A stretch of 44,198 nt of DNA from Escherichia phage vB_EcoS-EE09 (OR756193.1), one strand, 5' to 3'; positions 1,438-44,196 are shown, counted from the first letter of the stretch. Notes: generated from the letters alone by a model not told the origin. Numbers and translations: made by a program.

Positions 1438-1904
1438 AATTACTGATTTGCGATTTGGATGGAGTTATTAACGGTTCAAGCGATGCGCGCGCCGACCTGG
1501 TGCCTGGTATAAAAACTAAATCCACCTTTTGGGCGAAGTGGCACAAGGCGCACGTACGCGAAGACCTGAATATGGATATGCTGCCGCTGCTGACCATGTA
1601 CAAAGAGCAAGGCTTCGAGATCGCGTATCTGACCAACCGGCAGCGAGAATGCTGGGACACCACAGCCGAGCAACTGGAAGTATTCCCGAACGGCCGGTTG
1701 TTTATGCGCCACATGCTGGACGACACCCCGCCGCCAGAGTTTAAAGCGTACGCTGTGTTCAAAATGGTCTGCTATGCGGACGTATCGGAACTGGTCATCA
1801 TTGAAGACTGTCCGAAGAACATCGCGGCAATTCGTCGGGCGTGCAGCGATTTAGTCCCTAAAATTTATGCGATAAACGTGGCAAAATTCACTTGCAACCA
1901 ATAG
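1434..1904 (+). CDS. HAD-superfamily phosphatase (nucleotidase or polynucleotide 3'-phosphatase-like)
   Basis: N-terminal HAD motif I LICDLDGV (DxDxV); start overlaps the upstream stop (ATGA). Confidence 0.6.
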   Translation: MKLLICDLDGVINGSSDARADLVPGIKTKSTFWAKWHKAHVREDLNMDMLPLLTMYKEQGFEIAYLTNRQRECWDTTAEQLEVFPNGRLFMRHMLDDTPPPEFKAYAVFKMVCYADVSELVIIEDCPKNIAAIRRACSDLVPKIYAINVAKFTCNQ

Positions 1905-1921
1905 GTTGGTTGCACTATAGT
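1892..1921 (+). promoter_or_regulatory. candidate sigma70-type promoter carrying an inverted pair of the TTGGTTGCA motif
   Basis: -35-like TTGCAA, 18-nt spacer, -10-like TATAGT; the spacer is the inverted repeat TGCAACCAA-tagg-TTGGTTGCA; lies upstream of the CDS at 1966. Confidence 0.4.
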
Positions 1922-1965
1922 AAACGTGTCGGGGCAATACGGCCCCTCACTAAAAGGGTAATACT

Positions 1966-2487
1966 GTGAAAGCATACGAATACTGCAAAAACGCCGCCAC
2001 CACTATGGAACAGCGCGGGAAAGAAAACGGCTATGACAACGCGAAAGAAGAACGCAGCGCTAAACAGATCGCCGCCGTGTTTAACGCGCTTACCGGTCGC
2101 GACCTGACCGAGCAAGAAGCCTGGACTTTCTTGATTTGCCTGAAGCTGGTACGCCAGCACCGCAAGCACCAGGAATATAATATCGTCGACCTGGTAGCGT
2201 ATTCCGCCCTGCTGGGCGAGTCGTACATGACCGTGCATGATGAGATTCAGATCGACACAACGGCAGCACAATTCGACAGCCTAAAAGGTTGGCCCATCGC
2301 CTCCGCCGGGACGTGGCATCCTTCTTCATCTGAGGGCAAGACGGTTAAAGCCGCTAATTTTGGCATCGCAGATCAGGACGTACAGCCTATGGTCGTACTC
2401 ACCGGCGAAGACGGATCTAAAATCCTCATGACGCCGGAAGACTTCCGTAACATGGAAAAAACACTGGTGGCTGGCGCACTTAAATAA
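1966..2487 (+). CDS. hypothetical protein (173 aa, GTG start; alternative ATG near 2005)
   Basis: ORF track; RBS-like AAAAGGG upstream of GTG; no motif recognised. Confidence 0.45.
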   Translation: MKAYEYCKNAATTMEQRGKENGYDNAKEERSAKQIAAVFNALTGRDLTEQEAWTFLICLKLVRQHRKHQEYNIVDLVAYSALLGESYMTVHDEIQIDTTAAQFDSLKGWPIASAGTWHPSSSEGKTVKAANFGIADQDVQPMVVLTGEDGSKILMTPEDFRNMEKTLVAGALK

Positions 2488-2529
2488 TTCTAATCGCGGG
2501 CCGAAGCCCGCATCAATGAGGGCAACACA

Positions 2530-3131: not shown

Positions 3132-4952
3132 TTATTTCTTCAACGCCGCGATCTCGGCTTTCAAATCCTCCACTTCCGCCGACAGGCGTTTACACTCAGC
3201 GATCGCATATTGTGCGCACCCCATCAAGTCCATCACGATAGGGTTAACGTCTACCGACGGACGGTCGCGCGTCTTACCCCCGACGATGGCGTTAGTCTCG
3301 GGGTCCACCTCCACATCGTACGTCTCCTCTCGGTGTTTGATGTATTGAGGCGCAATCTCTTCTGCTTCCTCGGCAATGATGCCGAAGCGGACGCGCTCCT
3401 GCACATCGTCCTTATACACGTAGCGCACCATGCGCATTTGTTCAATGCGTGCAACCGCTTCGGTAACGTCCGCGTCGGTAATATCTTTCTTAAAGTCCCT
3501 TCCTGATGTACCCTGGAGGGCAATAACACCACCAGATGAGGGCCAGTTGACTGTGAAGCCAGTGCCGTCTCCCTTCTCAAAATATTTATAGATCAGGTTA
3601 CTATTGATATTAACCGTATCCCACATCGTGCGGAAGTTACCAGCCGGGACGGTAGCTTTTCCGTTGTTTAGAACGAAAGACAACGCTGAAGCTGTCTCTG
3701 TTGGGCGGACCGTGATATCTCGATGACTCATCATGCCGCTTATCCCCGATCCAGAGATCTCCATAACGGTATCGCGGTACGCGCCCGACGCGTCATATGA
3801 GTGCAACTTAAAATTGCCCGCGGCGTCGTTAATCCCCATGCGCCAGCGTACTTTATCGGCGGAATCAGCCCAACATACGCCACCAAAGCCCGACCCGTTC
3901 TGCTTAAGGATTAATCCATCTTGGGAGTCGCCGTTAGATTTGAATTGGCGGAACTCGGCGACGTTATCGCCGCGCCCCGTACCACCGAATGCAATCGGCA
4001 GCGGCATGGCTTTATTGTTGGCATTATCCCACCCGCCCCAGTCGCCATTTTCCTTAACGAAGATCCATTTATTCTTCGCCGCAGTCCTGATTTGTGTTTC
4101 GCCGCTGGTTATGTTTTGCGTTAGGCGGTCTACACCAATGTTTTCGCGCGCCACAGCCACATCCGCAACATCACTTAAGTTGTTGGCCTTCGCAAGTAGG
4201 TTTTCCGGGTTAACACTATTAGCGAATTGTTCGGCCTCATTGCGAAATCCTTGCGCGGCAGTGCGGGCAGCTTGCGCGTCCTCCTTCGCGGTATTGGCTT
4301 CATCACGAATAACGCCAGTGTCAGTCTTGATCTGATTCGTTTGGTCCTTGATCGCCTGCGTATCTGCCTTAAGTTGAGTGGTCTGGTCCTTGATCGCCTG
4401 CGTATCTGCCTTAAGTTGGCTGGTCTGCGTCTTGATGGTGTTGGCGTCGTTCTTGAAGCCTTCCGCCTCGTTACGGAATCCTTGCGCGGCTGCTTCCGAT
4501 GCGGCGGCTTGTTGTTGCAGGTTGCGCATCTCAACGGGGTCTACTTCCTTCAGCAAAGACGACAGGTAGCCCCACGACATACCCTGCATAACTTGCCCGT
4601 TCGGGAGCGTGACTGTGATTTCTTCAGCATCGCCGAAGATTGCACGCCAGTTGTTTTCATCTGCAATCATCAAGCGCAATGCTTTTTGGGCCTGTACGGT
4701 AACGCCCATCGTTGCCAGCGACATGGTATCGCGCTTAACGCCATCCCACGCAAGGCCGGTTGCCGTCGGGCCGTCGAACGGCAGCACCAGCGTAAGCGCC
4801 GTGTTACTTTCGATTGATGCGATCGCCACGGTGTAAGGCACTTGTCCTACCACCAGCGTTAAGAAGTCGCCAGCTTTAAACGCGGTAAACGTTGTGCCGA
4901 CCCCTACTACCGCCTTGCTGTTGTTCGTTACGGATAGAGTACCCGCTGCCAT
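3132..4952 (-). CDS. tail fibre protein with C-terminal intramolecular chaperone (peptidase S74-like) domain
   Basis: ORF track (track start at 4979 is a TTG inside the ATTGGTTGCA motif; ATG at 4952 with RBS GAGGA preferred); C-terminus has S-G-R-D-F-K-K-D-I followed by VRYVYKDD...RFGIIAEEAEEIAPQYI and a terminal coiled coil, the pattern of auto-cleaving chaperone domains of phage fibres. Confidence 0.75.
   Translation of the reverse strand: MAAGTLSVTNNSKAVVGVGTTFTAFKAGDFLTLVVGQVPYTVAIASIESNTALTLVLPFDGPTATGLAWDGVKRDTMSLATMGVTVQAQKALRLMIADENNWRAIFGDAEEITVTLPNGQVMQGMSWGYLSSLLKEVDPVEMRNLQQQAAASEAAAQGFRNEAEGFKNDANTIKTQTSQLKADTQAIKDQTTQLKADTQAIKDQTNQIKTDTGVIRDEANTAKEDAQAARTAAQGFRNEAEQFANSVNPENLLAKANNLSDVADVAVARENIGVDRLTQNITSGETQIRTAAKNKWIFVKENGDWGGWDNANNKAMPLPIAFGGTGRGDNVAEFRQFKSNGDSQDGLILKQNGSGFGGVCWADSADKVRWRMGINDAAGNFKLHSYDASGAYRDTVMEISGSGISGMMSHRDITVRPTETASALSFVLNNGKATVPAGNFRTMWDTVNINSNLIYKYFEKGDGTGFTVNWPSSGGVIALQGTSGRDFKKDITDADVTEAVARIEQMRMVRYVYKDDVQERVRFGIIAEEAEEIAPQYIKHREETYDVEVDPETNAIVGGKTRDRPSVDVNPIVMDLMGCAQYAIAECKRLSAEVEDLKAEIAALKK
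4341..4424 (-). repeat. two near-identical 42-bp tandem repeats inside the tail fibre gene
   Basis: TGGTCCTTGATCGCCTGCGTATCTGCCTTAAGTTG(A/G)(G/C)TGGTC twice with degenerate flanking copies; encodes 14-aa repeats (TQLKADTQAIKDQT-like). Confidence 0.8.
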
Positions 4953-4968: not shown

Positions 4969-4978
4969 ATTGGTTGCA
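4969..4978. promoter_or_regulatory. ATTGGTTGCA motif in the divergent region between tail fibre and lipoprotein genes
   Basis: Exact 10-mer shared with 20819, 20832, 44170, 44187 and, in reverse, 1893, 31484, 31515, 34812. Confidence 0.5.
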
Positions 4979-5032
4979 ATCCTGGTTGAGCGGTGTAATA
5001 CTAAGACTCAACCAAATATAGGAGATGATAAC

Positions 5033-5251
5033 ATGAAAACTTTAATTATGATTTGTGCGGTTCTTCTGTCTGGTTGTGCCGGTATGCCGTCTAAAATCTG
5101 CGACGCGACGTACCAGAATAGCGGCATGGATTACTCAGTCCCCGTGTTTGGGGTTGCAGACTTCTCCGGGCATAAAATGCTAAGGGCTGGCTATCCGTTT
5201 AGCTTCCAGTACGTGTCGGTCAACCACTTCAAAAGCACCACCTGCAGATAA
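5033..5251 (+). CDS. small secreted lipoprotein (72 aa); candidate Cor/Llp-like superinfection exclusion protein
   Basis: RBS AGGAG 8 nt upstream of ATG; signal peptide with lipobox (MKTLIMICAVLLSGC); opposite orientation to the surrounding tail genes, terminator hairpins on both sides. Confidence 0.65.
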   Translation: MKTLIMICAVLLSGCAGMPSKICDATYQNSGMDYSVPVFGVADFSGHKMLRAGYPFSFQYVSVNHFKSTTCR

Positions 5252-5270: not shown

Positions 5271-5945
5271 TCAATCATAATTGGCAGTGTTAATCGCCAT
5301 AATCGCGTTGCCGTTGTTAGTATACCCCACCACATCCCCCGTGGCGTTCCCCGACGACGCTGCCGATATACGCGTTCGCGACCCATCAAATCTGGCCCCC
5401 GTGTACGCCGTTACCGATATTACCTGCGGCTGGCCCTGCACAAAAAACCGGATCAGCGTAGACCCCAATATGCCCGGAGCGACGGCGTAGCTGCCGTTTA
5501 GCGTCTGGTCAATGTTAATCCCCCCGTTAGCGCCTGGCGATCCGACGGTAACTAAATCGCTTAGTACCCGGCTCTCGTTCGTCAGCACTAGCCTCCCCGT
5601 CTTATCCCAAATAGCGAAGCCCCACCGCGGAAGGGTCTGTGGGAATATGGCAAAGATGTAAGCCGTCATCGTGAAGCCTTGCCCGAATGGATTGCTGGCG
5701 CTCACCTTCACCACATTACCAACGCGAGAAGACCCTACGACGGTCGGCTGGGCGGTGTGCGTAGTTTTCACAAACGCTATTGCGGGGTAGTCGCCACCCA
5801 AATTAATATCGGCAGCCGCCGACTGCGCAGTGCCGTTAGCCGAAGACCCAACAACCACACGGCGGAATAGACAAAACGGCGTCGATTCTGGCGTGATAAA
5901 CGGGTTGCCGTTTGGTAAGTCAATCAACGCGCCGTAATTAGCCAT
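5271..5945 (-). CDS. hypothetical tail-associated protein (224 aa), possible receptor-binding component
   Basis: ORF track; start overlaps the upstream stop (TAATG); sits directly downstream of the J-like gene. Confidence 0.55.
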   Translation of the reverse strand: MANYGALIDLPNGNPFITPESTPFCLFRRVVVGSSANGTAQSAAADINLGGDYPAIAFVKTTHTAQPTVVGSSRVGNVVKVSASNPFGQGFTMTAYIFAIFPQTLPRWGFAIWDKTGRLVLTNESRVLSDLVTVGSPGANGGINIDQTLNGSYAVAPGILGSTLIRFFVQGQPQVISVTAYTGARFDGSRTRISAASSGNATGDVVGYTNNGNAIMAINTANYD

Positions 5946-6247
5946 TATGCTCGCTCCACAAAAACAATAACGTCACATTCAGATGCGGAGTAAACCCCGC
6001 CACCTACCGCACTTGCCGCGGAAACCGTGATAGTGTTCCCGCTGGCGGTTATTCTGCGGCCTGGCCCGACCGCGCCTTTATCCAGTGCGACCACGTATCC
6101 GACCTTCATCCCCGCCGGTACCGGGAATGACCATGCGCCTGATTTTTGTCCTTCCGCAAGATGAATCCTTCCGACAACCGATACCGGTTTAATCCCGTAG
6201 TTGTTCGGTCGCCCTTGTGCGTCCCATGTTGCTATTCCGAAAGCCAT
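5945..6247 (-). CDS. hypothetical tail-associated protein (100 aa)
   Basis: ORF track; RBS GGAG 8 nt upstream of ATG. Confidence 0.55.
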   Translation of the reverse strand: MAFGIATWDAQGRPNNYGIKPVSVVGRIHLAEGQKSGAWSFPVPAGMKVGYVVALDKGAVGPGRRITASGNTITVSAASAVGGGVYSASECDVIVFVERA

Positions 6248-6264
6248 GCTTTAACTCCAAAAGA

Positions 6265-6280
6265 AGGGGCCGAAGCCCCT
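6265..6280 (-). terminator. terminator/attenuator hairpin after the J-like gene
   Basis: AGGGGC-cgaa-GCCCCT hairpin with a T-rich run downstream on the minus strand. Confidence 0.5.
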
Positions 6281-6283
6281 ATA

Positions 6284-9200
6284 TTACCAACTGCCGGTGA
6301 GTTCTCCAATCTGCACGCGGAGAACGCCGTTTCCGTCCTTAACGCTGATTCGCGTGTTAGTCTGTTTCATCCCGCCGCCACTACCAGTGCCCAGGTTGAT
6401 AAACGTTCCGTCTTTCCCTAAGCGCCAGCCGCGCGTGCTGCCGTCGTAGTTATTCGATTGCAGCGTGTCTGTTATCTGCGCGAAGTTGATGGACGCGTTC
6501 TTGATGCGTGCCGTGTCGATATACACCGCGCCACCGTCCACAATAAACGCAGACGACAGCGTCCCATTGGACGGGTGCATGATGTAGAACTGGTCCGCCT
6601 TGAACGCAATACGTGATTTAACCGCGTTGCCAGACGTCACAACGGAAAGCTGCATACCAGCATCATAGTAAGTCCCGTTATACGTCACGCCCGCCTTAAG
6701 GCTATACGTGGCACTACCACCAGCGTGGTTAAACGAGGACGTCATCTTCTGCTCGATAGCGGCGGACTGCTGGCCGAACTGTGTCGCGACCTGGGTCTTA
6801 TATTCCGCCAGCGCTCCCGCCACGTCTGCGGTTGCCGTTTGTACCTGCTGGATGGCGGCTTCCTGTTCCCCGAACTTAGCGGCAACAGTTTGCTGATACT
6901 GGGCGAACGCTTGTTCCTGTGTGCTCTGCGCGGTCTGCAACGTGTGGATCGCAGCTTCCGCGTCATCAAGTCGCGTGCCGATCAACGTCTCCAGTTGAGC
7001 GACCGCCTTGTGGGCGTCCGCCGCCACGTTATACGCGACCGAGATTTCCGCATAAATACCCTTGTACTCGGCGCGGGCGTTGAACAATTGCTGCGCGTCG
7101 GTGAGCATCGCTTCATATATGCCTTGCGGGATCGTGTTAATAGCTTCCTGGAAGCGTTTACCATCCTCGGAAGTCAAGAACTCGTCATCAAGCCCCTTCA
7201 TGTACTCGTCAACTTTGTCACTCACCTGCCCTTCAAACGGGGCCGACCAGTCCGACCGGTTGCCGATTTTATCCACCACACGGGCGCGCAACTGCTGGTA
7301 AATCCCGAACTCCAGCGACGTTTGCGCATACTCTGCCCCAGGGTATGGGACGTTGGACAGGAATTTCCATTCCGTTTCGCCCGTCTTGCGCACTTCAAGC
7401 TCTGTGTAAGAGATATCCGTCGCGGCGTTGTTGTGGTTCCACTTCCATAGGATCTGGTGCAAACCTGAAATCGCGTTGGTGATGATTGGCGCATTAAGCC
7501 CACCGAGACGACCTTCCACCGGCGTGATCGCGGATGATACCCACGGAGATGAAATCTCGCCCATACCGATCGCACGGACGCGTGCCTGGTAGTTACCGGA
7601 GAACACGTTAGGAATGTGCGCGCCATTCGACGCCGTTCGTGGGATATTCACCCAGTCGTTACCCCACTGGATTTCCATATTCTGTAAGCTGGTGCGCCGC
7701 CACTGTATTTCATACACCACGGCGTCCTTCACCGGCGGGAAAACAATATCCACGTTGGTGATTAGCTGGCCTTGCGATGAAATCTGCGACGGGGTTATGG
7801 TCACGGATTCCGGCCCCTTCATCACACCGTCCGGCACTTGCGTAAAGATGCCTGGGTCAAGGCGCGCGCCATTATCAACGGCATCATATTTGCTATCGTT
7901 GTATTCAATCCCGCGCACCGAAAAAGTGCTGGTAGAGTCGTCATATTCCAGGTCGGTGATGCGGAACTTCTGCAACTGGATATCGTTGCCATCAACGCAA
8001 AACGGCTGGTCGGGAATCGGGTCGGCATCCAGTGCAGTTTTTAGCGTAACCTTGTTGCCGTTGACGCTGGCGATCTCGCGAGTCTCCACATTACCGCTAT
8101 CGGTGCGCACCAGGAACTTATCGCCAGGGCGGAACGTGATTTCGCTGTCCGTGTTCAGCACGGTACGCGTTCCGGGGTCCGACATCAGTCGACCGCCACG
8201 AGTCTCGAATCCGCCAGAAATATTAGTATCTGCGATCGCGACTACGCTACCAGGAATAAAGAATAACCCTTCCATGCCAACTTTAAAGCTAACTTGCTGG
8301 TCAAGCTGGTTGGAGATTAGCGCCCAGTGCCCGCGGCGTTGCGCTTCAGATTCACGCGTACAGCCGATCGCCGTGATATCAAGACGGTTAATCTTATGGC
8401 GGCGTACCAGTTCGACACGTTGCCCCGTTGCGATGGCATCTTCATAGTGGTTCTTCGGGTTGCCGTATGCGACCGCGAAAGTTGAATACCGAGTTTTCTG
8501 GCTGCCCGATGCGTAGTCGAATCGACCATCAATTACCGAGGCGTTGGTGATAGTGTGCGACACTGCTGCGACCGGTTGGTCACTGACGATATTCAACATC
8601 TGGTTGCCCCACCAGGTCATTCCGGCGAAGATGGCAGCCAAATCCTTAAGCACGGTCCAGGCATCCGTCTGTGACTGAATGTACATATCATTCTTAAAGC
8701 GGATTTCTCGACCACCGTTGCCGTCGCTGACCAACTGATCGCAGCGCTGCGCAATCTGGTAGAGCGCGTACCGGTTTAACATTTGCGGTTTGATACGCCG
8801 ACCGAGGCCGAAGCGCTCAGTAATACAAATATCGTACCAGTGCCACGCAGGGTTATCCGTCCATGCGCGTTTAAACGTGCCGTCCCAGTCCCCGGAATAG
8901 GTATGGTTAATCGGGTCGTAGTTGTTCGGTATTAGAACTTTGCGGCCTTTGCACTTGATGGACACGCGCGGGATGTTCTGGAACGCTTTGGCGTCGAACT
9001 CCACAAACAACAGCGCGGTTAGCGGGTAACGCAGACGGGCGTCAATAATCTCAGTGATGGACTGCACCCGGATATCATTAACCACTTTCGCCGATGTGGA
9101 GTCCGCCGTTATGCGGTGCACCTCCACTCGCCAGCCGGTATTCACGTTCGGCGGTAATTCGATGCGGTGGTCGCGCTCATACAGCGACATTGTTTTACCA

Positions 9201-11048: not shown

Positions 11049-11050
11049 GG

Positions 11051-35843: not shown

Positions 35844-36032
35844 ATGGCTATATTCTTTGTTTTATTTCGTTGCCGTATTACCGGCGACGAGCAACCGGAA
35901 ATTGTTATGAATCAAAACTGGAATTGCTGCTGGATGCAAGCCCGAGGACTGGCGGCTACCATGAACAATGCCGCTAAGCGGGCCAATGTTGAACATGACT
36001 ATTACATTGCTCAATTTACACGGGTGGAATGA
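35844..36032 (+). CDS. hypothetical protein (62 aa)
   Basis: ORF track; start and stop coupled to neighbours (TAAATG, ATGA). Confidence 0.4.
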   Translation: MAIFFVLFRCRITGDEQPEIVMNQNWNCCWMQARGLAATMNNAAKRANVEHDYYIAQFTRVE

Positions 36033-37462
36033 TGGCGATTAAACCAAAACGTAAAACGCAATCCGGTAGCAATACGGAGCACTCATTACTCGGGCCATCC
36101 GGTGCTAAAAAATGGATGGGTTGCCCTGCCGCCCTGGTGGTGGAAAAAGATATCCCGAACGAATCCGGGCAAGCCGCGATTAACGGTACGAGTATGCACA
36201 CCGTATCGGAGGTGGTGCTAAACCGCATTATCGCCGGTGAGAAGCTGATAACCGCGAAGACGTATAAAGGGTGCTACGTCGAGAACGAAGGCAAGGGGCC
36301 GGTAAAGGCGCACCCGAAAGCACCGAAAGGCGGCGTACTGGTCACCGACGATATGGTGAAACAGTGCGACGCGTACATCGACCACTGGCGACCGCTCCTC
36401 GAAGTGGCGGAGTTTGTTCGGCTTGAGATGCGCGCCGATCTGACCCGCGTCCTACACTCTGGCTTCGAGATCGACGGCAACCGGGTTAAGACGTTCGGTA
36501 CTGCCGATATGGTCATGGTCATGAAGAAGACCGACGGCACGTACATGCTGATTGTTGGCGACCTGAAGACGGGGCGGCATAAGGTCGAGGCGAAAGAAAA
36601 CAAACAGCTTATGTTGTATGCGCTGGGCCTGCTGCGCAAGCTGAAAACCATGTACGACATTACGACCGTGCGCCTGGCTATCTTCCAGCCGTATTGCGGC
36701 GGGGCGTCGGAGTGGGATATTTCGGTAGAAGCCCTGGAGATATTCGCGAAGTTTGCGGCCAAGCGTGCGATCGCCGCCCTGGAAGCGTACGCCCGCGGTA
36801 AGAAAGGACTCACCCGTGCCGACTTCCGACCGAGCGTTGATGCGTGCCAGTGGTGCAGATTTGCGGATCAGTGTAGTGCCCGCGCTAAGGCCGCAATCGA
36901 CACGATGACACCTCCAACGGCAACCGACGAAGACCTGGGCGACGACGTGAGTATCGCTACAGAGGAGGAATGCGCCAACCACGATCGCAATATGGCCCGC
37001 GAAGCCCGGAAGGCGGCACGACGTGCGAAGCGTGGCAAGAAAGAAGCGGCCCCCGGCGCTATGACCGCCGCAGAACTGCGCAAGGCATATGAAGGTCTAG
37101 ACGCAATGCGCCAGCACATCAAGGCTATCGAGTACGCAGTATTCAAGGCTGTGATGGCGGGCAATGGTGAATCGCTGGGCCTCAAGATGGTTGCCGGTAA
37201 GGAAGGGATCCGCAAATGGGCGGACGAGAGCGAGGTGATTGAAATCTTCACGAAGGCCCGGATCAAGCGCGACGTGATGTACAAAGAAACATTGCTCAGT
37301 CCTACCGACGCCGAGAAGGTATTGAAGGACGAGAAACCGAAAGTGTGGGCGAAATTGTGTGATAAAATCACGCGCGCACCGGCTAAACCTGTATTAGCAC
37401 CAATTGACGACCCGCGCCCCGCGTGGTCTGAAGCTACCGACGAGGACTTAAGTAATGAATAA
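36029..37462 (+). CDS. PD-(D/E)xK nuclease, Cas4-like / DUF2800-type (477 aa)
   Basis: Nuclease core D...IVGDLKTG and a C-terminal Cys cluster C-x2-W-C-x5-C consistent with an Fe-S Cas4/RecB-like exonuclease. Confidence 0.65.
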   Translation: MMAIKPKRKTQSGSNTEHSLLGPSGAKKWMGCPAALVVEKDIPNESGQAAINGTSMHTVSEVVLNRIIAGEKLITAKTYKGCYVENEGKGPVKAHPKAPKGGVLVTDDMVKQCDAYIDHWRPLLEVAEFVRLEMRADLTRVLHSGFEIDGNRVKTFGTADMVMVMKKTDGTYMLIVGDLKTGRHKVEAKENKQLMLYALGLLRKLKTMYDITTVRLAIFQPYCGGASEWDISVEALEIFAKFAAKRAIAALEAYARGKKGLTRADFRPSVDACQWCRFADQCSARAKAAIDTMTPPTATDEDLGDDVSIATEEECANHDRNMAREARKAARRAKRGKKEAAPGAMTAAELRKAYEGLDAMRQHIKAIEYAVFKAVMAGNGESLGLKMVAGKEGIRKWADESEVIEIFTKARIKRDVMYKETLLSPTDAEKVLKDEKPKVWAKLCDKITRAPAKPVLAPIDDPRPAWSEATDEDLSNE

Positions 37463-37697
37463 AGTATTCGCAGTCTTATTGATGTTTTTTCTCGGCGCGC
37501 TGGGCTTTATCCTGCATTGCGTGCAAGGCGTGTTAATGGTGGCGTGGATGATTCGCCATCCGACCCGCTGGCTGGATGACGGCTATAGCGAAGTTGCCGT
37601 CGATTGGGTGGAAAAGAACATCGACCGACCGCCGCTAAGCTGGATCGAGAACGCCACCAACTACGTTACCCGAAATCTTTTTAATGAAAATGCTTGA
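37455..37697 (+). CDS. small membrane protein (80 aa)
   Basis: ORF track; N-terminal hydrophobic segments (VFAVLLMFFLGALGFILHCVQGVLMVAWMI). Confidence 0.45.
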   Translation: MNKVFAVLLMFFLGALGFILHCVQGVLMVAWMIRHPTRWLDDGYSEVAVDWVEKNIDRPPLSWIENATNYVTRNLFNENA

Positions 37698-37787
37698 CCG
37701 CTTAGGCGCAACCAAGTAGATTAGCAACCAAGCCGAACGGGGTGGCTTCCAATAACCCCGATACATGTGAAAATGAGGAATTGGAAA

Positions 37788-38573
37788 ATGGCTAAAGTCA
37801 ACCTGAAAAATGTGCGTGTATGTTTCCTGAAAATTTGGGAACGTGATACCCCTAAACAGGATGGACAAAAACCGGCATACCGTGCCGTGATTCTTCTTGA
37901 TAAAGAAGATCCGCAGGTGGACAAAGTGGAAGCGGCAGCGCGCGCAGTGCTCACCGACAAGCTGAAATCTGAGAAGAATGCCGATAAGTGGATGGACCGC
38001 CACTACGCCCAGGATTCTAAGGAATGCGCAGTTCGTGACGGTGACGAGCGCGACGAAGTAACCGAAGAATTCGAAGGCATGTTGTACATCAACGCTAAAT
38101 CGTTCAAACAGCCAAACATTCAAACGTCACTCGGCGAGAAGCAGACCGAACAGGGTCTGACCGTAGAAGGCGACGAGATCGAAGGCCAGGAGATCTACTC
38201 CGGTTGTTATTGCAACGTGTCCCTTGATATCTGGGCGTGGAACAATACCAACGGCAAGGGACTCGGTGCTGGCTTGCTGGGTTTACGCTTCCGTGATGAC
38301 GGTGAAGCCTTCGGGGGTGGCGGGTCTTCTTGCTCCGATGAAGACCTGGACAACGACGACGAAGACGAAGCACCGCGCAAGTCCAAAAAGTCAAAACGTC
38401 GTGATGACGATGATGAAGATGACAAGCCGCGCAAGTCCAAGAAATCCAAGCGCCGCGATGACGACGACGATGAGGAAGATGAAAAACCTCGCAAACGTCG
38501 TAAGCCACGCGATGACGAAGATGAGGACGACGACGACGAAGACGAAGCGCCACGTAAACGTCGCCGCCGTTAA
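37788..38573 (+). CDS. DUF2815-like putative ssDNA-binding protein with charged repeat tail
   Basis: ORF track trimmed to the ATG with RBS GAGGA 7 nt upstream; MAKVNLKNVRV... N-terminus; C-terminal ~85 aa of tandem PRKSKKSKRRDDDDED-type repeats. Confidence 0.55.
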   Translation: MAKVNLKNVRVCFLKIWERDTPKQDGQKPAYRAVILLDKEDPQVDKVEAAARAVLTDKLKSEKNADKWMDRHYAQDSKECAVRDGDERDEVTEEFEGMLYINAKSFKQPNIQTSLGEKQTEQGLTVEGDEIEGQEIYSGCYCNVSLDIWAWNNTNGKGLGAGLLGLRFRDDGEAFGGGGSSCSDEDLDNDDEDEAPRKSKKSKRRDDDDEDDKPRKSKKSKRRDDDDDEEDEKPRKRRKPRDDEDEDDDDEDEAPRKRRRR

Positions 38574-38592
38574 GGGCAAAGCCCACTATTCA

Positions 38593-38616
38593 AGCCCGCT
38601 TAATGCGGGCTTTTTA
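38593..38616 (+). terminator. rho-independent terminator after the DUF2815-like gene
   Basis: AGCCCGC-ttaat-GCGGGCT hairpin followed by T5. Confidence 0.7.
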
Positions 38617-38631
38617 ATAGGACAATGAAAA

Positions 38632-38802
38632 ATGCGTATTAAAGCCAGCGAAGTAAAAGTCGGAATGCAAGTATGGTCCAAGCTACTGGGGGAATATTTC
38701 ACAGTTGCCGAGATTCGCAACAACGGCGAAGAGATCGCCCTGTCAGACGGCATCTTCTCCACGATCGGCAGCGCTGACGCCGTAGTGAGGATAAAGCAAT
38801 GA
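38632..38802 (+). CDS. small hypothetical protein (56 aa) coupled to the DNA polymerase gene
   Basis: RBS AGGA; stop overlaps the polymerase ATG (ATGA); too short for the ORF track. Confidence 0.45.
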   Translation: MRIKASEVKVGMQVWSKLLGEYFTVAEIRNNGEEIALSDGIFSTIGSADAVVRIKQ

Positions 38803-40958
38803 AAGACTTCGAACGTCTGTTTCTCGACACCGAGACATTTAGCGGGGTGGACCTGAAGAAAGTAGGGGCGTACGCCTACGCAGAGCACCCAACCACCGAG
38901 ATTATGATTTGCACCTACGCCATCGACGAAGGCCGCGTGCAGACATGGGATGCCACTGAATCCCCAACAATGCCGCGTGAACTGCGCAAGGCGCTCCGTC
39001 AGGTATCCCGCAAGAAAGCAAAAATCGTGATGGCTAACGGCCTCCTGTTTGACCGCCTGGTTATCCGTGAGAAGTGGGGAATCGACCTGCCGGTAAGCCA
39101 GATCGAAGATACCATGATTATGGCCTTTCGCCACGCGCTGCCGGGTAGTCTCGATATGCAGTGTCAGGTGCTGGGCGTTGACGCAGAGCACGCGAAGGAT
39201 AAGGCCGGCAAGGCGCTGATCAAACGATTCTGTAAGCCTACCCCTAAGACCTACAAAATACGCCGCTACACGCGCGAGACTCACCCTGAAGAATGGGCCA
39301 AATTTCTGCGATATGCCGCTCTTGATATTATCGCGATGCGTGAGGTCTACTGGCGCATACCGGACTGGGGTAATACTCCGAAGGAAGACGAGATACTGCT
39401 TATTGACCAGTTGATCAACGACCGCGGCTTCTATGTGGACGTTGACCTGGCGAACGCCGCGATCAAAGCGGTGCAGGCGCATAAGGAAGAATTGAAGGAG
39501 GAAGCCTGGGAGCGATTTGGCGGTAAGCTGACCGGCAATGACTTCCTGCCAATCCTGCGTGATATCGCCCCAGCGTTCACAATCCACAACGCGCAGAAAT
39601 CCACACTTAACGACCTGCTTGAAGACCCGGACTTCCCCGACGAAGGCAAAGCGCTTATCGAAATGCGCCTCGGTGCGTCATCAACGGCATCGACTAAGTA
39701 CAATCCGCTAGTTAACGGCTTATCCGCAGACGGTCGCCGCCGTGGGTGTCTTCAGTATGGTGGTGCAAAGCGCACGCTGCGCTGGGCCGGTAAAGGCTTC
39801 CAGCCGCAAAACCTGGCACGCGGCGAGTATAGCGACGATCACGAAGGGAAGATTAAGCGCCGCGAAGGCGAGAGCGACGTTGCTTTTTGGGTCCGGTCGC
39901 ACATGCTCACCAACGGCATCAATTCCCTGTTACGCGGGACCGCGCACTGGGCGTATGACATATCTAAGCTAACAGCCTCGACCGTTCGCGGGTGCATTAT
40001 CCCGGCTAAGGGCAAGAAGTTTGTCGTAGCGGACTACTCCAACGTGGAAGGGCGTGGACTTGCCTGGATCGCGGGCGAGAAAACAGCGCTCATGGTGTTT
40101 AAGGCCGGTCGCGATATCTATTGTGAGACTGCCGGTAAGATGTTCGGCCTGGACCCGGACTACATTAAAGCCAACCGCAAGGACTTGCGCCAGATCGGTA
40201 AGGCGTGCGAATTGGGGCTGGGCTATGGTGGCGGCGTCGCGGCGTTCTTGCAGTTCGCTAAAAACCTGGGACTCGACCTTTACACTATGGCGGACGTGAT
40301 GAAAGGCACGTTCCCGGATCACATTTGGGCGGCGGCGAAGCGCGGTTATGAGTACGCCCGCATTAACGAAGCGAAACGCCCACCGAAGCCGGGTAAGAAG
40401 GACGAGCGCCCGACTTACATACTGCCGAAAAACGTATGGCTTACTTGTGACGCGATCAAACGTATGTGGCGTGAGGCTCACCCGAAGACGGTAGCCTTTT
40501 GGGCCGAGCTTGAGGACGCGGTGTTGTGTGCAATCCGCAATCCGGGCAAAGCATACTGGGCTGGTGCGAACGTTCACCCGGACGGTGGCATCGCGCTGTC
40601 TGTCACTACCGAGATCGACGAAGACACCGGCAAGAAGCGCACCAGCACACGCATTAAATATCAGGGCGAGAATCAGACGACGCGCCAGTGGGGCTTCCAG
40701 TATACCTACGGCGGCAAACTGACGGAGAACATCGTACAGGCGTTATGCCGTGATATTCTCGCCTGGTCAATGCCTGGCGTTGAAGCTGCGGGCTATGAAA
40801 TCGTTCTATCGGTGCATGATGAATTGATCACAGAAGTGCCGGACACCGACGACTACACGACCGAGGAGCTTTGCGCGCTGATGTGCGACCTGCCTATTTG
40901 GGCAAAAGGCTTCCCACTTGCCGCGGAAGGCGACATCATGTACAGGTACAGGAAATAA
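38799..40958 (+). CDS. family A DNA polymerase with 3'-5' exonuclease domain (719 aa)
   Basis: Exo I motif LDTETFS near the N-terminus; polymerase motifs R-Q-I-G-K-A-C-E-L-G-L-G-Y-G-G-G (motif B-like) and V-H-D-E-L (motif C). Confidence 0.85.
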   Translation: MKDFERLFLDTETFSGVDLKKVGAYAYAEHPTTEIMICTYAIDEGRVQTWDATESPTMPRELRKALRQVSRKKAKIVMANGLLFDRLVIREKWGIDLPVSQIEDTMIMAFRHALPGSLDMQCQVLGVDAEHAKDKAGKALIKRFCKPTPKTYKIRRYTRETHPEEWAKFLRYAALDIIAMREVYWRIPDWGNTPKEDEILLIDQLINDRGFYVDVDLANAAIKAVQAHKEELKEEAWERFGGKLTGNDFLPILRDIAPAFTIHNAQKSTLNDLLEDPDFPDEGKALIEMRLGASSTASTKYNPLVNGLSADGRRRGCLQYGGAKRTLRWAGKGFQPQNLARGEYSDDHEGKIKRREGESDVAFWVRSHMLTNGINSLLRGTAHWAYDISKLTASTVRGCIIPAKGKKFVVADYSNVEGRGLAWIAGEKTALMVFKAGRDIYCETAGKMFGLDPDYIKANRKDLRQIGKACELGLGYGGGVAAFLQFAKNLGLDLYTMADVMKGTFPDHIWAAAKRGYEYARINEAKRPPKPGKKDERPTYILPKNVWLTCDAIKRMWREAHPKTVAFWAELEDAVLCAIRNPGKAYWAGANVHPDGGIALSVTTEIDEDTGKKRTSTRIKYQGENQTTRQWGFQYTYGGKLTENIVQALCRDILAWSMPGVEAAGYEIVLSVHDELITEVPDTDDYTTEELCALMCDLPIWAKGFPLAAEGDIMYRYRK

Positions 40959-41236
40959 TGACACCAGAAGGCAAGATTCAAAGTCACCTGATGAGACGGG
41001 TGAAAGATGTTGGCGGATTCTGCCGAAAACTGGCATGGGAGGGGCGCGCAGGTGCGCCCGACCTGATTATTATCATCAACGGCAAAATAGTGTTCGTCGA
41101 AGTGAAGCGCCCCGGAGGAAAACCGAAGCCGCACCAGGTACGTGAACATGAGCGAATGGCCCGCCGCGGTGCGGACGTTCGTGTTATCGACAACATAGCC
41201 GACTGCGATTTATTGGTTGCTGAATTGGTCGCGTAG
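40958..41236 (+). CDS. VRR-NUC domain nuclease (92 aa)
   Basis: ORF track trimmed to the ATG overlapping the polymerase stop (TAATG); PD-(D/E)xK core DLIIIINGKIVFVEVK. Confidence 0.6.
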   Translation: MTPEGKIQSHLMRRVKDVGGFCRKLAWEGRAGAPDLIIIINGKIVFVEVKRPGGKPKPHQVREHERMARRGADVRVIDNIADCDLLVAELVA

Positions 41237-41276
41237 CGGTATAGTGTGCAGGTTGGCACTATCGAGGATTTTAGAA

Positions 41277-41450
41277 ATGATTGAAGAAAAACGTTGTAGT
41301 AATTGCGGATGCATCAAGCCGCTATCCCAGTTCCACAAGTACACCGGCAAGACTGCGCGAAGTCCAGACGGTCATCGGGCCGAGTGCAAGTCGTGCCGCA
41401 ATAAGAAAGAGCGCGAACGGCAGCGCCGCTATCGCGCAGAACAAGAATAA
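41277..41450 (+). CDS. small zinc-ribbon protein (57 aa)
   Basis: RBS GAGGA 8 nt upstream of ATG; C-x2-C...C-x2-C pattern (CSNCGC ... ECKSC) with a basic C-terminus. Confidence 0.45.
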   Translation: MIEEKRCSNCGCIKPLSQFHKYTGKTARSPDGHRAECKSCRNKKERERQRRYRAEQE

Positions 41451-41457
41451 TCAATAC

Positions 41458-41480
41458 GGCGGGCTTGTCCCGCCATTTTT
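41458..41480 (+). terminator. rho-independent terminator
   Basis: GGCGGG-cttgt-CCCGCC hairpin followed by ATTTTT. Confidence 0.6.
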
Positions 41481-41494
41481 AGAGAGACATGACG

Positions 41495-41713
41495 ATGAAA
41501 GAACACTACCGACTCACCAAGCTGGGCGAATGTAAGCCGGGCGATCGCGTATGGTTTATTGCGGGCATGAATGACCCGCTGCCGTTGACGGTATGCTGGC
41601 AAAAATTTAAGAGCTTCCGGGCTACCGGTGTCCACGTCGGACACGCCACCAACTACGACGCCACAAAGAGGAACTGGGATAGTGAAACTGAAGTCTGGAA
41701 AAAGGCGGAATAA
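41495..41713 (+). CDS. hypothetical protein (72 aa)
   Basis: RBS AGAGAG 8 nt upstream of the second ATG of the track ORF. Confidence 0.45.
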   Translation: MKEHYRLTKLGECKPGDRVWFIAGMNDPLPLTVCWQKFKSFRATGVHVGHATNYDATKRNWDSETEVWKKAE

Positions 41714-41717
41714 AGAG

Positions 41718-43142
41718 ATGGCACGATTCCGACGCCGCGAATATCAGAAGTTGATAACCGCGTTCATCCTCAAGCATAAGCGATGCAATATATGGGCGAC
41801 AATGGGGTCGGGTAAAACCGGCGCGACTATGTGGGCGCTGAACAAAATGTTCCAGACTGGCGTCCTGTCCCATCATGAGGACCGCGTACTGGTGCTGGCC
41901 CCGCTGCGTGTTGCGTCCGGTACGTGGCCCCCGGAGCAAGAAAAATGGCGATTCCCCGCCTTGCTGGTCGTAGACGGCACCGGACCGGAGAAGGACCGGA
42001 TTGCAGCGCTTGAGAGCGACGCTAACGTGGTTTGTGTTAACTACGATGTGGTTGAGTGGCTGGTTGACTATTACGGCGATGCGTGGCCCTTTACGGTCGT
42101 TGTTGCCGATGAATCCACTAAGCTGAAAGGCTACCGCAGTAAGCAGGGTAGTAAGCGCGCACGCGCACTGGCGGCGATCGCACATAAGCACGTCAAGCGC
42201 TGGATTAATCTGACCGGCACACCAGCGCCAAACGGGCTGAAAGACTTATGGGGTCAGACGTGGTTTGTCGACGGTGGCGAACGACTCGGCAGTAGTTATA
42301 AGGCATTTACCGATCGCTGGTTCATTAGCAAGCCGGTTAAGCCTGGCAGCTTCACTATGCAGCACGCCCCGCTAAAGAACTCCGAGAAAGAAATACAACA
42401 ACGCCTGTCTGACGTATCCCTCACCGTTGACGCGGCTGAATACTTCGGATGTGACAAGCCAATATATACGCCGGTTGTTGTGGATCTGCCGAAGAAAGCC
42501 CGCAAGATTTACGACCAGTTTGAAAGCGAGCTATTTGCCGAACTGGAAAGCGGAACAGTGGAAGCGGCGAACGCGGCATCGAAGACTATTAAGTGCCTTC
42601 AGCTTGCTTCGGGGGCCGTGTATAAAGTCGACGAAGACGGCGAGCGCACCGACGAATGGGTGAAGATTCACGACGCCAAACTGGACGCGCTGGAAAGTAT
42701 CGTGGAGGAGTTGAACGGCGCGCCGTTGCTCGTTGCGTATCAGTATAAGCATGACCTGGCACGTCTTAAGAAGAAATTTCCGTACGGCGTCGCGTTGGGT
42801 AAGGGTAAGCAGGGCAATAAGGATATGGAAGCGTGGAACAGAGGCGAGATCCCCATCATGTTTGCACACCCGGCATCGGCGGGCCACGGCCTTAACTTGC
42901 AGGACGGCGGTCATCACCTGGCAATCTTCTCCGATACCTGGAACTTTGAGCACTTTTCGCAGATCGTTGAACGTATCGGGCCGGTTCGCCAGATGCAGGC
43001 CGGACACCCTCGACCGGTATTCGTCTACATTATCCAGGCGCGCGGAACACTGGACGAACTGGTCGCCGAGCGTCGCGACAGTAAGCGAGATATACAGGAC
43101 GACTTGATGGAATACATGAAAGCTAAAAAGGCGCGCAAATGA
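41718..43142 (+). CDS. SNF2/DEAD-like superfamily 2 helicase (474 aa)
   Basis: ORF track trimmed to the ATG after the upstream stop; Walker A-like ATMGSGKTGA and DExx box VVADEST. Confidence 0.75.
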   Translation: MARFRRREYQKLITAFILKHKRCNIWATMGSGKTGATMWALNKMFQTGVLSHHEDRVLVLAPLRVASGTWPPEQEKWRFPALLVVDGTGPEKDRIAALESDANVVCVNYDVVEWLVDYYGDAWPFTVVVADESTKLKGYRSKQGSKRARALAAIAHKHVKRWINLTGTPAPNGLKDLWGQTWFVDGGERLGSSYKAFTDRWFISKPVKPGSFTMQHAPLKNSEKEIQQRLSDVSLTVDAAEYFGCDKPIYTPVVVDLPKKARKIYDQFESELFAELESGTVEAANAASKTIKCLQLASGAVYKVDEDGERTDEWVKIHDAKLDALESIVEELNGAPLLVAYQYKHDLARLKKKFPYGVALGKGKQGNKDMEAWNRGEIPIMFAHPASAGHGLNLQDGGHHLAIFSDTWNFEHFSQIVERIGPVRQMQAGHPRPVFVYIIQARGTLDELVAERRDSKRDIQDDLMEYMKAKKARK

Positions 43143-43849
43143 CTATTGCTAAAATGACAATTTGGTCATTGTTTGACGGCAGCGGCTTGATGATTGAGCG
43201 TGCTGCCGAGATGGGGCATAAGTGTTATTGCTTCAACTACTCCGAAGCCGACCACGGGTCTTACCTTGACTACCGGATTTATGGTCGCGGAATCCGGTAT
43301 CGCAATGAGTTTATCGATCTGGACTTTGTAGACCGTGCGATGAATGGCGATTTCGGTACGCCAGATATCATCTACGCATTCCCGCCGTGTACTGATCTGG
43401 CGGTGAGCGGTGCGCCAGCTTTCCCGCGCAAACGCGCCCGCGACCCGGCCTTCCAGCTTAAGGCGGTGCGCACCGCGAAGATCGCAGCTTACCTGGGTGA
43501 CTTCTTCGAAGTGCCATATATGATTGAGAATCCGCGCAGTGTGCTTTCCACCCAGTGGCGCAAGCCGGATCACTCATTCGACCCGTGGGAGTATGGGGGA
43601 TATCTGCCGGAGGATGACGTACACCCGCTCTTCCCGGAATACATCAACGCCCGCGATTCATATCCGAAGCTGACCTGCTTATGGACCGGCAACGGCTTCC
43701 GTATGCCAGAGAAGAAACCTGTTTTCGTTGAAAAAGGGTACTCGAAGCAGTATAGTCGCCTCGGAGGCAAATCAGCCCGCACAAAATTAATCCGGTCGCT
43801 CACCCCGCGCGGCTTCGCGATAGCGGTCAATGAGGAAAATTTAAAATGA
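43139..43849 (+). CDS. putative DNA (cytosine-5) methyltransferase-like protein (236 aa)
   Basis: Motif I-like LFDGSG, P-C dipeptide in AFPPCTD (motif IV-like), E-N-P in MIENPRSV (motif VI-like); short for a complete C5 methyltransferase. Confidence 0.4.
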   Translation: MTIAKMTIWSLFDGSGLMIERAAEMGHKCYCFNYSEADHGSYLDYRIYGRGIRYRNEFIDLDFVDRAMNGDFGTPDIIYAFPPCTDLAVSGAPAFPRKRARDPAFQLKAVRTAKIAAYLGDFFEVPYMIENPRSVLSTQWRKPDHSFDPWEYGGYLPEDDVHPLFPEYINARDSYPKLTCLWTGNGFRMPEKKPVFVEKGYSKQYSRLGGKSARTKLIRSLTPRGFAIAVNEENLK

Positions 43850-44169
43850 ATACTACATTCGAAGCCATTGATTTTTCGGTTGCAATGACTAACCAGTTAT
43901 TCTCCTACGACAGCAAAACCGGCGTCATTCGTCTGAAGTCCACCGGCTGCAAAATTGGCAACCTCAACACTGCCGATGGCGGCACGCGCATCGAATGCAA
44001 CGGCAAAACTCTATCGGGCGCACGCGTGGCGTGGATTATCGCGACCGGCAATACAATTCCTCCAGGCTACGCCGTTGTGTGCCGCCAGCGAACACCAGGC
44101 CACTACGGCAACCGAATCAGCAATCTGTATCTGGTAGACGTTGCACGCGACCCAAATTTTTATTCGTAA
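43846..44169 (+). CDS. HNH-endonuclease-like protein, possibly degenerate (107 aa)
   Basis: N-terminal F-S-Y-D-x-x-T-G and C-terminal G-N-R-I-S-N-L resemble phage HNH proteins, but the expected metal-binding His positions are not evident. Confidence 0.4.
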   Translation: MNTTFEAIDFSVAMTNQLFSYDSKTGVIRLKSTGCKIGNLNTADGGTRIECNGKTLSGARVAWIIATGNTIPPGYAVVCRQRTPGHYGNRISNLYLVDVARDPNFYS

Positions 44170-44196
44170 ATTGGTTGCATAATTAGATTGGTTGCA
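44170..44196 (+). promoter_or_regulatory. tandem ATTGGTTGCA motifs at the right edge of the window
   Basis: Two exact copies 17 bp apart immediately after the stop of the last gene, same tandem arrangement as at 20819-20841. Confidence 0.5.

Follow-up and report, generated by a model that had tools for sequence, protein, structure and literature searches.

The window analysed here, the whole 44,198-bp stretch of Escherichia phage vB_EcoS-EE09 (OR756193.1; EE09), is a complete, circularly permuted Dhillonvirus genome (HK578/SO-1-like virulent coliphage). Dhillonviruses are common, easily grown coliphages; they feature in the BASEL collection and in studies of phage therapy and of defence systems. 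The closest phages, GeorgBuechner and jat, have ~94% and ~92% identity to EE09, and the gene map of EE09 is the jat annotation carried over by tblastn. This report concerns a short motif, ATTGGTTGCA, which recurs at gene boundaries of EE09 and which, judged from its placement and conservation, is quite likely the site of a phage-encoded protein with roles at both a replication origin and promoters. The genes and gene blocks around it are:

3132-4952 (-), lateral tail-fibre gene
5033-5251 (+), Cor-like (superinfection-exclusion/Cor-like) gene
5271-20716 (-), structural module
about 20890-21628 (+), Nmad5 gene, variable ("moron")
34622 down to 21467 (-), leftward block of small helix-turn-helix (HTH), helicase-primase, small, lysis, terminase and portal genes
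31941-34282 (-), helicase-primase gene (754 aa in relatives), with an AAA_25 domain
34293-34622 (-), 109-aa HTH gene, first gene of the leftward early operon and a rival candidate binder of the motif
34845 to 44169, and on across the window ends to 3105 (+), rightward early/replication block

Copies, conservation and lineage variants of the motif

An earlier note on this DNA had listed ten exact copies of ATTGGTTGCA and judged them far too many for chance. All ten were found, at 1893 (-), 4969 (+), 20819 (+), 20832 (+), 30775 (+), 31484 (-), 31515 (-), 34812 (-), 44170 (+) and 44187 (+), and their rarity under chance was borne out by a shuffled null (0.13 expected; 0 of 100 shuffles reached 10). 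With up to one mismatch there were 16 copies against 3.04 expected. In an unbiased k-mer scan, ATTGGTTGC was the top over-represented 9-mer in EE09 (15 copies; 0.44 expected). Variant copies also exist as the note had indicated, namely GTTGGTTGCA at 1905 (+), ATTGGTTGCC at 31606 (+), 31831 (-), 31866 (-) and 31920 (-), and CTTGGTTGC at 37708 (-) and 37724 (-); absent from it were ATTGGTTGCT at 41212 (+) and the accompanying ATTGGTCGC at 41224 (+). The identical 17-mer ATTGGTTGCACACCAAC, said to be shared by two sites, lies at 20832-20848 (+) and 31477-31493 (-).

All 15 copies of ATTGGTTGC are at gene boundaries, in agreement with the proposed boundary placement. Thirteen lie in non-coding DNA, which makes up 8.8% of the window (binomial P = 1.7e-12), and two in terminal codons of genes. 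The proposed consistency of orientation held for ~12-13 copies, which are co-oriented with the downstream gene, and failed for 5-6, which are opposite. Motif-bearing gaps of EE09 are confined to the early/replication/accessory half and two junctions beside the structural module; the late structural gaps of EE09 contain no motif copies. When 93 distinct sites from seven genomes were combined in a weight matrix, only A-TTGGTTGC was informative and the flanks were not, with a weak preference A>C>G at position 10. The recognition unit is therefore a non-palindromic 9-mer.

The motif was kept at syntenic positions in every relative examined, close or distant. Syntenic copies are present in jat, GeorgBuechner, CHD5UKE2 and Sodalis phage SO-1, and in up to 20 alignable relatives the motif columns are 98-100% identical and the flanks 85-95%. 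In the metagenomic relatives L005, L007, L009, L145 and L146 the motif occupies the same kinds of places, with unalignable flanks; syntenic copies persist in L146, whose core proteins have 65-86% identity to those of EE09. These metagenomic relatives have 10-12 copies, mostly intergenic, against 0.1-0.25 expected per 13-20 kb. Observed and expected numbers were 12 and 0.24 in L005, 11 and 0.18 in L146, 10 and 0.11 in L009, and 14 and 0.56 in SO-1.

Sampling of intermediate helicase-primase lineages (L150-L154 type) revealed lineage switching within a wider family of sites, (A/G)TTGG-NN-GC, whose central dinucleotide is TT, CC, CA or CT depending on the lineage. The helicase-primases of the nearest outgroups have 43-49% identity to the Dhillonvirus-like ones, and synteny is shared. 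The TT centre is found in Dhillonvirus-like phages, 37P2/L151 and eiAU. Klebsiella phage 37P2 has 7 copies of TTGGTTGC (0.42 expected) with the same promoter grammar, and Edwardsiella phage eiAU has 12 (0.86 expected), 7 of which form an iteron-like array straight after the helicase-primase stop. The CC centre occurs in L150 (core TTGGCCGC; 11 copies against 2.0 expected), the CA centre in L152 and L154 (core TTGGCAGC), and the CT centre (core TTGGCTGC) in L153 and, as a few copies in the post-helicase gap, in Salmonella phage SE1. These variants occupy the same places as the TT motif; in L152, L153 and L154, 5 of the 5-6 copies form an array after the helicase-primase gene. The copy within the 3' end of that gene switches too, so that ELVA is encoded by GAATTGGTTGC in TT phages and ELAA by GAGTTGGCCGCA in L150. 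Coordinated change of the centre at all sites of a lineage points to a co-evolving phage reader rather than a host factor.

When 2.9 million viral contigs were scanned for ATTGGTTGC-N(1-25)-ATTGGTTGC, most matches were tandem arrays of an unrelated kind, and the scan was too unspecific to show the distribution of the motif. Another sequence family, GCTGCCGTT/AACGGCAGC, is also enriched across the window (13 copies in EE09 against 0.87 expected; 17 in GeorgBuechner), and L150 has 21 copies of GCTGCCGT; copies of these three are apparently mainly intragenic and on both strands.

Motif copies in sigma70-like promoters

Motif copies at or near promoter-like sequences in EE09 are listed below, together with the promoters of the divergent early region.

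1892-1921 (+), inverted pair TGCAACCAAT-AG-GTTGGTTGCA in promoter TTGCAA-18-TATAGT, before the gene at 1966
4969-5002 (+), copy serving as -35 TTGCAA in the promoter of the Cor-like gene 5033-5251
20806-20848 (+), Nmad5 promoter TTGCAA-17-TATATT, with one copy in the spacer (20819-20828) and one at -9..+1 (20832-20841) running into the 17-mer
30775-30784 (+), single copy whose TTGCAA can be the -35 of a minus-strand promoter TTGCAA-17-TACATT (30757-30785); intact in 16/16 alignable relatives
31484-31524 (-), tandem pair in the promoter of gene 30981-31460; the upstream copy is the -35 TTGCAT
34636-34682 (-), early leftward promoter of the HTH/helicase-primase operon, -35 TTGACA at 34677-34682 and -10 TAGTTT at 34654-34659
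34636-34653 (-), palindromic site CATTGGTCATTAACCAAC, at ~+1 of the leftward early promoter
34799-34828 (+), early rightward promoter TTGACA-18-TATTAT, with the closest sigma70 match genome-wide (11/12)
34812-34821 (opposite strand), motif in the spacer of the rightward promoter, one base off the -10; same layout in L003, L005, L007, L009, L145 and L146
37694-37732 (+), promoter TTGACC-17-TAGATT before the single-stranded-DNA-binding protein (SSB) gene, with reverse CTTGGTTGC in the spacer (37708-37716) and past the -10 (37724-37732)
41212-41245 (+), ATTGGTTGCT (-35 TTGCTG) and ATTGGTCGC in the spacer, -10 TATAGT, at the VRR-NUC gene end and before 41277
44170-44198 (+), tandem pair past the HNH gene; the first copy is the -35 TTGCAT (44175-44180) and the second is in the spacer

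The sigma70-like overlaps claimed earlier are present: TTGCAA-17-TATATT at 20806-20834, TTGCAA-18-TATAGT at 1892-1921, and TTGACA-18-TATTAT at 34799-34828 with the motif in its spacer. A consensus scanner placed four of the best intergenic sigma70-like promoters of the window on motif copies, i.e., these three and 37694-37722. In the seven genomes, 69% of motif sites had a promoter-like match of at least 8.5, as compared with 10.5% of random positions; for matches of at least 9, the values were 44% and 3.9%.

Placement relative to the promoter falls into several classes. Forward copies at -40..-32 supply the -35 through TTGCNN (4969, 31515, 41212, 44170), and forward copies at -9..-1 are found at 20832 and 31484. 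Reverse copies at -34..-26 provide the -35 by their self-complementary TTGCAA (1892, 30775). Reverse copies at -22..-14 abut the -10 of promoters that have a consensus TTGAC(A/G) -35; this class comprises the early rightward and SSB promoters of every Dhillonvirus-like genome. Reverse copies at -29..-20 occur in the promoter before the phosphoesterase/terminase cluster in relatives and are gone in EE09, and a reverse copy at ~+3..+11 marks the leftward early promoter. Such variable placement and orientation rule out a single core promoter element for RNA polymerase and are in keeping with a DNA-binding protein distinct from it.

When the divergent early control region was aligned, conserved islands stood out amid diverged DNA. 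One island, at the rightward early promoter, consists of -10, motif and -35; the other, at the leftward early promoter, consists of -35, -10 and the palindromic TTGGT-N5-ACCAA site. In L005, L009 and L145 the leftward early promoter has an exact reverse motif at +3..+11. The layout of the SSB promoter recurs in L005, L009, L145, L146, 37P2 and L150, each with its own motif variant. In the tandem pair at 31484-31524, the -10 TAGATT overlaps the downstream copy, which itself extends into ATTGGTTGCACACCAAC. The motif at 41212 is intact in 14/14 alignable relatives. The window ends meet within a promoter (...ATTGGTTGCATT joined to ATCTTAAGGG): the -10 TATCTT that follows the 44170 pair spans position 44198 and positions 1-5, and a terminator-like hairpin follows at 6-29.

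Several other promoter-like regions were observed. At 27906-27997 (-), jat, GeorgBuechner, CHD5UKE2, L005, L145 and L146 have 1-2 motif copies (TTGACG-TGCAACCAAT...) in the phosphoesterase/terminase promoter; EE09 keeps a -35 TTGACT there, and motif and spacing are gone. Between the divergent early promoters, a promoter-like TTGAAA-17-AATAAT with an upstream TG (34695-34723, +) is present in the window-type clade only. About 30 bp past it, a strong terminator-like hairpin with a T9 run (34755-34790) is conserved more widely, and a small RNA of some 60 nt could arise from 34695-34790 (+). Before the small terminase gene (26633-26762, -), a terminator-like hairpin precedes a perfect extended -10, TGTTATAAT, with no motif copy; this region is a candidate motif-independent late promoter.

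The gap after the helicase-primase gene

The densest and evolutionarily most constant location of the motif is the following array.

31461-31943 (-), candidate replication origin, a 480-bp non-coding gap
31831-31929 (-), candidate iteron array right after the helicase-primase stop, with three direct ATTGGTTGCC at 31921-31929, 31867-31875 and 31832-31840

The gap contains, in order, the iterons, a AATAGTTATGCAGTT block with AT-rich DNA at 31771-31820, four GCGGGACA repeats, a long hairpin, an inverted ATTGGTTGCC at 31606-31614, and finally the next gene's promoter. Thus, short repeats lie just downstream of the open reading frame (ORF) and flank an AT-rich region, and a copy of opposite orientation follows at 31606. 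GC content of the gap is 0.47, against 0.546 for the genome, and falls as low as 0.27 in 30-mers; the conserved AATAGTTAT(GCAGTT) block sits in the AT-rich segment 31771-31820 (GC 0.27-0.33). An equivalent array with the lineage's own variant was found at or after the helicase-primase 3' end in all ten further lineages examined. The inverted copy in the gap is seen in window-type genomes, and in the order of every lineage a motif-bearing promoter of the next gene closes the gap. The gap also has a second repeat array, which is lineage-specific: GCGGGACAAA in EE09, GGGTGCCA/TGGCACC in L007, L009 and L146, TTGCGAGT in 37P2 and L151, and GGGGGAGA in SE1. In the GenBank record of SO-1, repeat regions A and B correspond to the gap before the tape-measure gene and the post-helicase gap, the latter being "region B". 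From this layout, the post-helicase gap is probably the replication origin. Since the motif is densest and most constant in the array after the helicase-primase gene, it belongs in the first place to the replication module, with the promoter copies as an addition.

Other features of the gap were as follows. GCGGGACA(AA) has 12 copies in EE09 (2.1 expected): 7 in the ~700-bp gap between the tail-assembly-chaperone and tape-measure genes (15159-15416), 3 in the candidate origin (31735-31768), and single copies at 25937 and 41466. No helicase-primase segment tracking the second repeat family (GCGGGACA versus GGTGCCA) was sharply distinct. The long GC-rich hairpin CAGTCTTTCAGACTAGACGGGGG...CCCCCCTCGTCTGAGACTG (~31665-31735, -) is present in all Dhillonvirus-like relatives examined; it has no T-run after it and a z-score of -2.1 when folded as DNA, and may be a structural element of the origin. 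An Rfam scan of the window gave no matches.

Candidate readers of the site

The suggestion in the earlier note that the motif is the binding site of a regulator fared well: the evidence supports a conserved, functional cis-element that is linked to several transcription units and is best read as the site of a phage protein. Which protein binds, and with what sign of effect on transcription, we infer as parts of the best explanation. We put at roughly even odds (about 0.5) that the reader is the helicase-primase, acting through a predicted C-terminal winged helix:

31989-32216 (-), codons of the predicted winged helix (~residues 664-739; AlphaFold2 [AF2] and Foldseek)

The AF2 model was made from the C-terminal 230 residues with a 26-sequence alignment. 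Residues 140-215 of the fragment were predicted to form three helices and a beta-hairpin, i.e., a winged helix, with a predicted local distance difference test (pLDDT) score of 85-92. The best Foldseek matches were MarR-family winged-helix regulators, including a MepR-DNA complex; winged helices of histone H1, ScpB and Rio2 were matched as well. The region of helix 2 and helix 3 is identical in both CA phages (AGGKRRPAIQSLIDRK) and differs in the CT phage (PGGGRRPAMKSLLDRR); it also differs between L150 (CC; TSAHYGKTLAKM) and its relative 37P2 (TT; TSGNYKKVLEEL). Pfam detected AAA_25 (RecA/RepA-like) alone, searches against PDB and NCBIfam sequences found no informative relatives, and a homologue search with the C-terminal 230 residues alone returned a single protein. 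Helicase-primases of all lineages end in an acidic tail, ...(A/S)(T/S)D(D/E)DL-x-D (31944-31970, -), whose codons double as a motif copy in several lineages. This tail resembles the partner-contacting acidic C-terminal tails of T7 gp4, gp2.5 and SSB.

Several points weigh against the helicase-primase as reader. Mean pLDDT of the whole fragment was 60.6, and the model is confident only in the winged-helix domain. Foldseek probabilities were 0.97-1.0 with modest E-values (best, 5.7e-3). Sequence searches of Pfam and NCBIfam detected no primase or DNA-binding domain, and "helicase-primase" is the database annotation. Covariation of winged helix and motif is weak, because the recognition regions of the TT lineages differ greatly (KGGTSTKAIDDM in Dhillonvirus, TSGNYKKVLEEL in 37P2, VHGDRKKFQEGW in eiAU), and comes from few lineages. 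A small repressor of the Cro kind would more typically have its sites inside many promoters, as here, where the two divergent early promoters are among them. The 109-aa HTH protein, for its part, has an unusually conserved DNA-binding half and a palindromic site at the start of its own operon. Finally, the helicase-primase gene of EE09 carries a frameshifting duplication. This 74-bp direct tandem duplication relative to GeorgBuechner (33760-33900) breaks the reading frame and splits the gene into ORFs 31941-33902 and 33803-34282; in an essential gene, it reflects either an assembly artefact or a defective genome. The scaffold-like gene (20178-20716) has lost ~160 bp at ~20450-20530 relative to GeorgBuechner, which leaves two ORFs in different frames and is a second sign of imperfect sequence quality or of a defective variant.

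A serious but less likely alternative is that the motif is the operator of the 109-aa HTH protein, which may otherwise be a second layer of control. As operator-binding protein it would act as a Cro/CopG-like dimer on early and middle promoters and on its own operon, repressing them or at some sites activating them, and a promoter directed into the origin would come under its control too. This protein has an HTH_23/Sigma70_r4_2-type C-terminal HTH, a long coiled-coil-like helix before it, and a variable N-terminus; AF2 predicted a very long helix followed by the HTH (pLDDT 87.6), and a role of this helix in coiled-coil dimerisation is in keeping with weak sequence matches to coil segments of vimentin. 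Foldseek with this model gave generic local HTH matches alone, and searches of PDB and NCBIfam revealed no informative relatives. Its family is tiny, with three representatives at 50% identity among 1.84 billion proteins. In GenBank relatives the gene is labelled "DNA recombination nuclease inhibitor gamma" (Gam), "transposase" or "resolvase", which is recurrent mis-annotation. In its favour, the protein has the sole sequence-predicted HTH among 38 small or unassigned EE09 ORFs scanned; its C-terminal 60 residues are nearly invariant and its N-terminus is free to vary; and the L146 and CHD5UKE2 versions (46-47% identity) retain GIN-x-S-T-[VI]-[RK]-x-W along with the same motif. Its gene adjoins the divergent early region, where sites overlap the -35, -10 or +1 of both early promoters and the palindromic copy lies at ~+1 of its own operon; plasmid pRN1 has a small repressor at the same operon position (PMC4234260). 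However, 37P2, L151 and eiAU have exact TTGGTTGC but a non-homologous XRE-type (XRE/Cro) HTH at that position, and no homologue of the 109-aa protein was found in the 14-22-kb loci examined in these three. The sharing of exact TTGGTTGC by phages with non-homologous small HTHs argues against those HTHs as the reader, since it is very improbable that an unrelated fold took the place of a regulator and preserved its 8-bp specificity at 7-12 sites. Operator specificity thus does not follow repressor family, and XRE recognition helices differ even between two CA-variant phages. In L152, L153, L154 and eiAU, moreover, the element is essentially an origin array and not a promoter operator. Covariation of the motif with the 109-aa protein gave no signal: the L146 and CHD5UKE2 proteins are strongly diverged and the motif is the same. 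The first rightward early protein (35025-35543) was also considered as binder and rejected; it is conserved in all lineages, but is acidic, highly charged and of low complexity.

The earlier note had offered, as one option, a phage-specific promoter class. This can be taken to mean that host RNA polymerase, possibly phage-modified, reads the motif directly as a core promoter element. Its 3' TTGCA(A/T) often falls exactly at the -35 position, 16-18 bp from a -10-like hexamer, and TAnATT hexamers precede several copies. We nevertheless consider this highly improbable: copies face either way and take at least five placements relative to the -35/-10, the strongest early promoters own a consensus TTGAC(A/G) -35 and have the motif reversed in the spacer, origin-gap arrays lack a matching -10, and the central dinucleotide differs between phages of related enterobacterial hosts. 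Binding by a host protein conserved in Enterobacterales and exploited by the phages would explain the same TTGGTTGC in Escherichia, Sodalis, Klebsiella and Edwardsiella phages despite highly diverged proteins, but is just as hard to credit, as sister lineages have TTGGCCGC, TTGGCAGC or TTGGCTGC at the same positions and the constant partner of the motif is the phage helicase-primase gene. To our knowledge, none of the E. coli regulator or sigma-factor sites (CytR, NtrC/sigma54, Y-box ATTGG, DnaA, IHF) fits the conserved positions. Least probable of all is that the copies have no dedicated binder and are remnants of a duplicated promoter/5' untranslated region cassette spread by recombination at module boundaries. 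Two sites do have the common 17-mer and a similar ribosome-binding region, and several copies lie beside variable "moron" genes (Nmad5, Cor-like); on the other side, similarity between copies is limited to the 9-mer with no information in the flanks, the 9-mer is invariant while the flanks diverge, and coordinated switching of the dinucleotide across the sites of a lineage needs a trans-acting reader.

If the helicase-primase is the reader, ATTGGTTGC(A/C) would be the Dhillonvirus form of the lineage-variable site (A/G)TTGG-NN-GC bound by this phage-encoded initiator. The helicase-primase would load itself at the array beside the AT-rich stretch and the further repeats, and the putative origin would comprise the array 31831-31929, the inverted copy at 31606 and the repeats between them. 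Dhillonviruses would have placed the site also in sigma70-type promoters of early, middle, replication and accessory units, including the helicase-primase operon; 37P2-like and L150-like phages appear to have promoter-embedded sites to a lesser extent. In these promoters the site may supply or abut the -35, fill the spacer against the -10, or cover the start, and occupancy by the initiator would modulate them, most simply by repression. Sites in the spacer, -10 or start would interfere with RNA polymerase, and sites supplying the -35 could lead to either polymerase competition or recruitment. Early transcription would thereby be tied to the amount of initiator and to replication. The further proposal that the helicase-primase is also a global early-gene regulator, acting via iterons in about ten promoters, is doubtful. 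Under it, rising helicase-primase would shut down or retune early transcription, and promoters opened by transcription might double as secondary sites of loading. A single protein would then run replication initiation and the early-to-late switch as one mechanism, and the small HTH would be a second, lineage-replaceable layer.

Parts of this arrangement resemble known systems. Rep/PriRep of Staphylococcus aureus pathogenicity islands (SaPIs) is a helicase, fused to a primase in some islands, whose C-terminal winged helix recognises short iterons; its ORF is directly followed by these iterons, which flank an AT-rich region and are oppositely oriented (PMC9371898). EE09 has the same order of gene, iterons, AT-rich block and inverted copy, and a predicted winged helix; however, its sites are 9 bp long, and about a dozen more lie in promoters genome-wide, which is not described for SaPIs. 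The P4 alpha and pRN1 ORF904 proteins combine primase, helicase and a C-terminal origin-binding winged helix in one polypeptide (PMC2777425, PMC4234260). The pRN1 origin is just downstream of the gene, and the operon also contains, ahead of that gene, orf56 for a small repressor (PMC2777425, PMC4234260); this matches the EE09 order of HTH gene, helicase-primase gene and repeat-rich gap. P4 alpha and ORF904 have superfamily 3 (SF3) helicases, whereas the EE09 ATPase is of RecA/RepA-type AAA_25; the EE09 protein has no detectable sequence homology in PDB and NCBIfam, and P4 alpha (PDB 1ka8) was absent from the top 50 Foldseek hits. Because Pfam gave AAA_25 alone and PDB and NCBIfam gave no sequence matches, the EE09 helicase-primase is an architectural analogue and not a member of the P4 alpha/ORF904 protein family.

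Initiators of iteron plasmids (RepA, RepE, pi) assemble on direct repeats at the origin and repress themselves through an inverted or palindromic promoter copy (PMC4980987). EE09 likewise has direct repeats at the candidate origin and a palindromic copy at the promoter of the operon that encodes its putative initiator; unlike in these plasmids, its sites are in many promoters and the proposed initiator is itself a helicase-primase. Stoperators of cluster A mycobacteriophages are short asymmetric sites with many intergenic copies, one of them over the early promoter, and are bound by a phage protein (PMC9283540, PMC6550527). The EE09 site is also short, asymmetric and present in many copies in short intergenic regions. 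However, stoperator phages are temperate or temperate-derived and the binder is the immunity repressor (L5 gp71-type); stoperator orientation follows transcription, which the EE09 motif does only loosely (about 12 versus 6), and most EE09 copies overlap promoters or form the origin array. The EE09 motif resembles T4 MotA boxes in being phage-specific and in replacing or overlapping the -35 of sigma70-type promoters, but the MotA box is fixed in position near -30 and in orientation, and the EE09 motif in neither. No MotA/AsiA homologues were seen.

In the literature on Dhillonvirus, HK578, SO-1, YD-2008.s and related phages, we found no description of the motif, its promoters or the origin, nor any account of transcription starts or transcriptional control in Dhillonviruses. 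A self-loading initiator with downstream iterons, and the reuse of iterons as operators, are of a known kind. New are the combination of a RecA-type helicase-primase with a predicted C-terminal winged helix, a 9-bp code whose central dinucleotide can switch between lineages of an enterobacterial siphophage supergroup, and the spread of the site to about ten promoters genome-wide in a virulent phage. The analysis predicts an origin at ~31.5-31.9 kb, a 9-bp code in which the two central bases set lineage specificity, and a map of ~ten promoters. The natural TT, CC, CA and CT variants constitute a ready-made specificity-swap experiment. If it is true that the initiator occupies the promoter iterons, these phages would provide a simple and tractable virulent-phage example in which replication and transcription are directly coupled.

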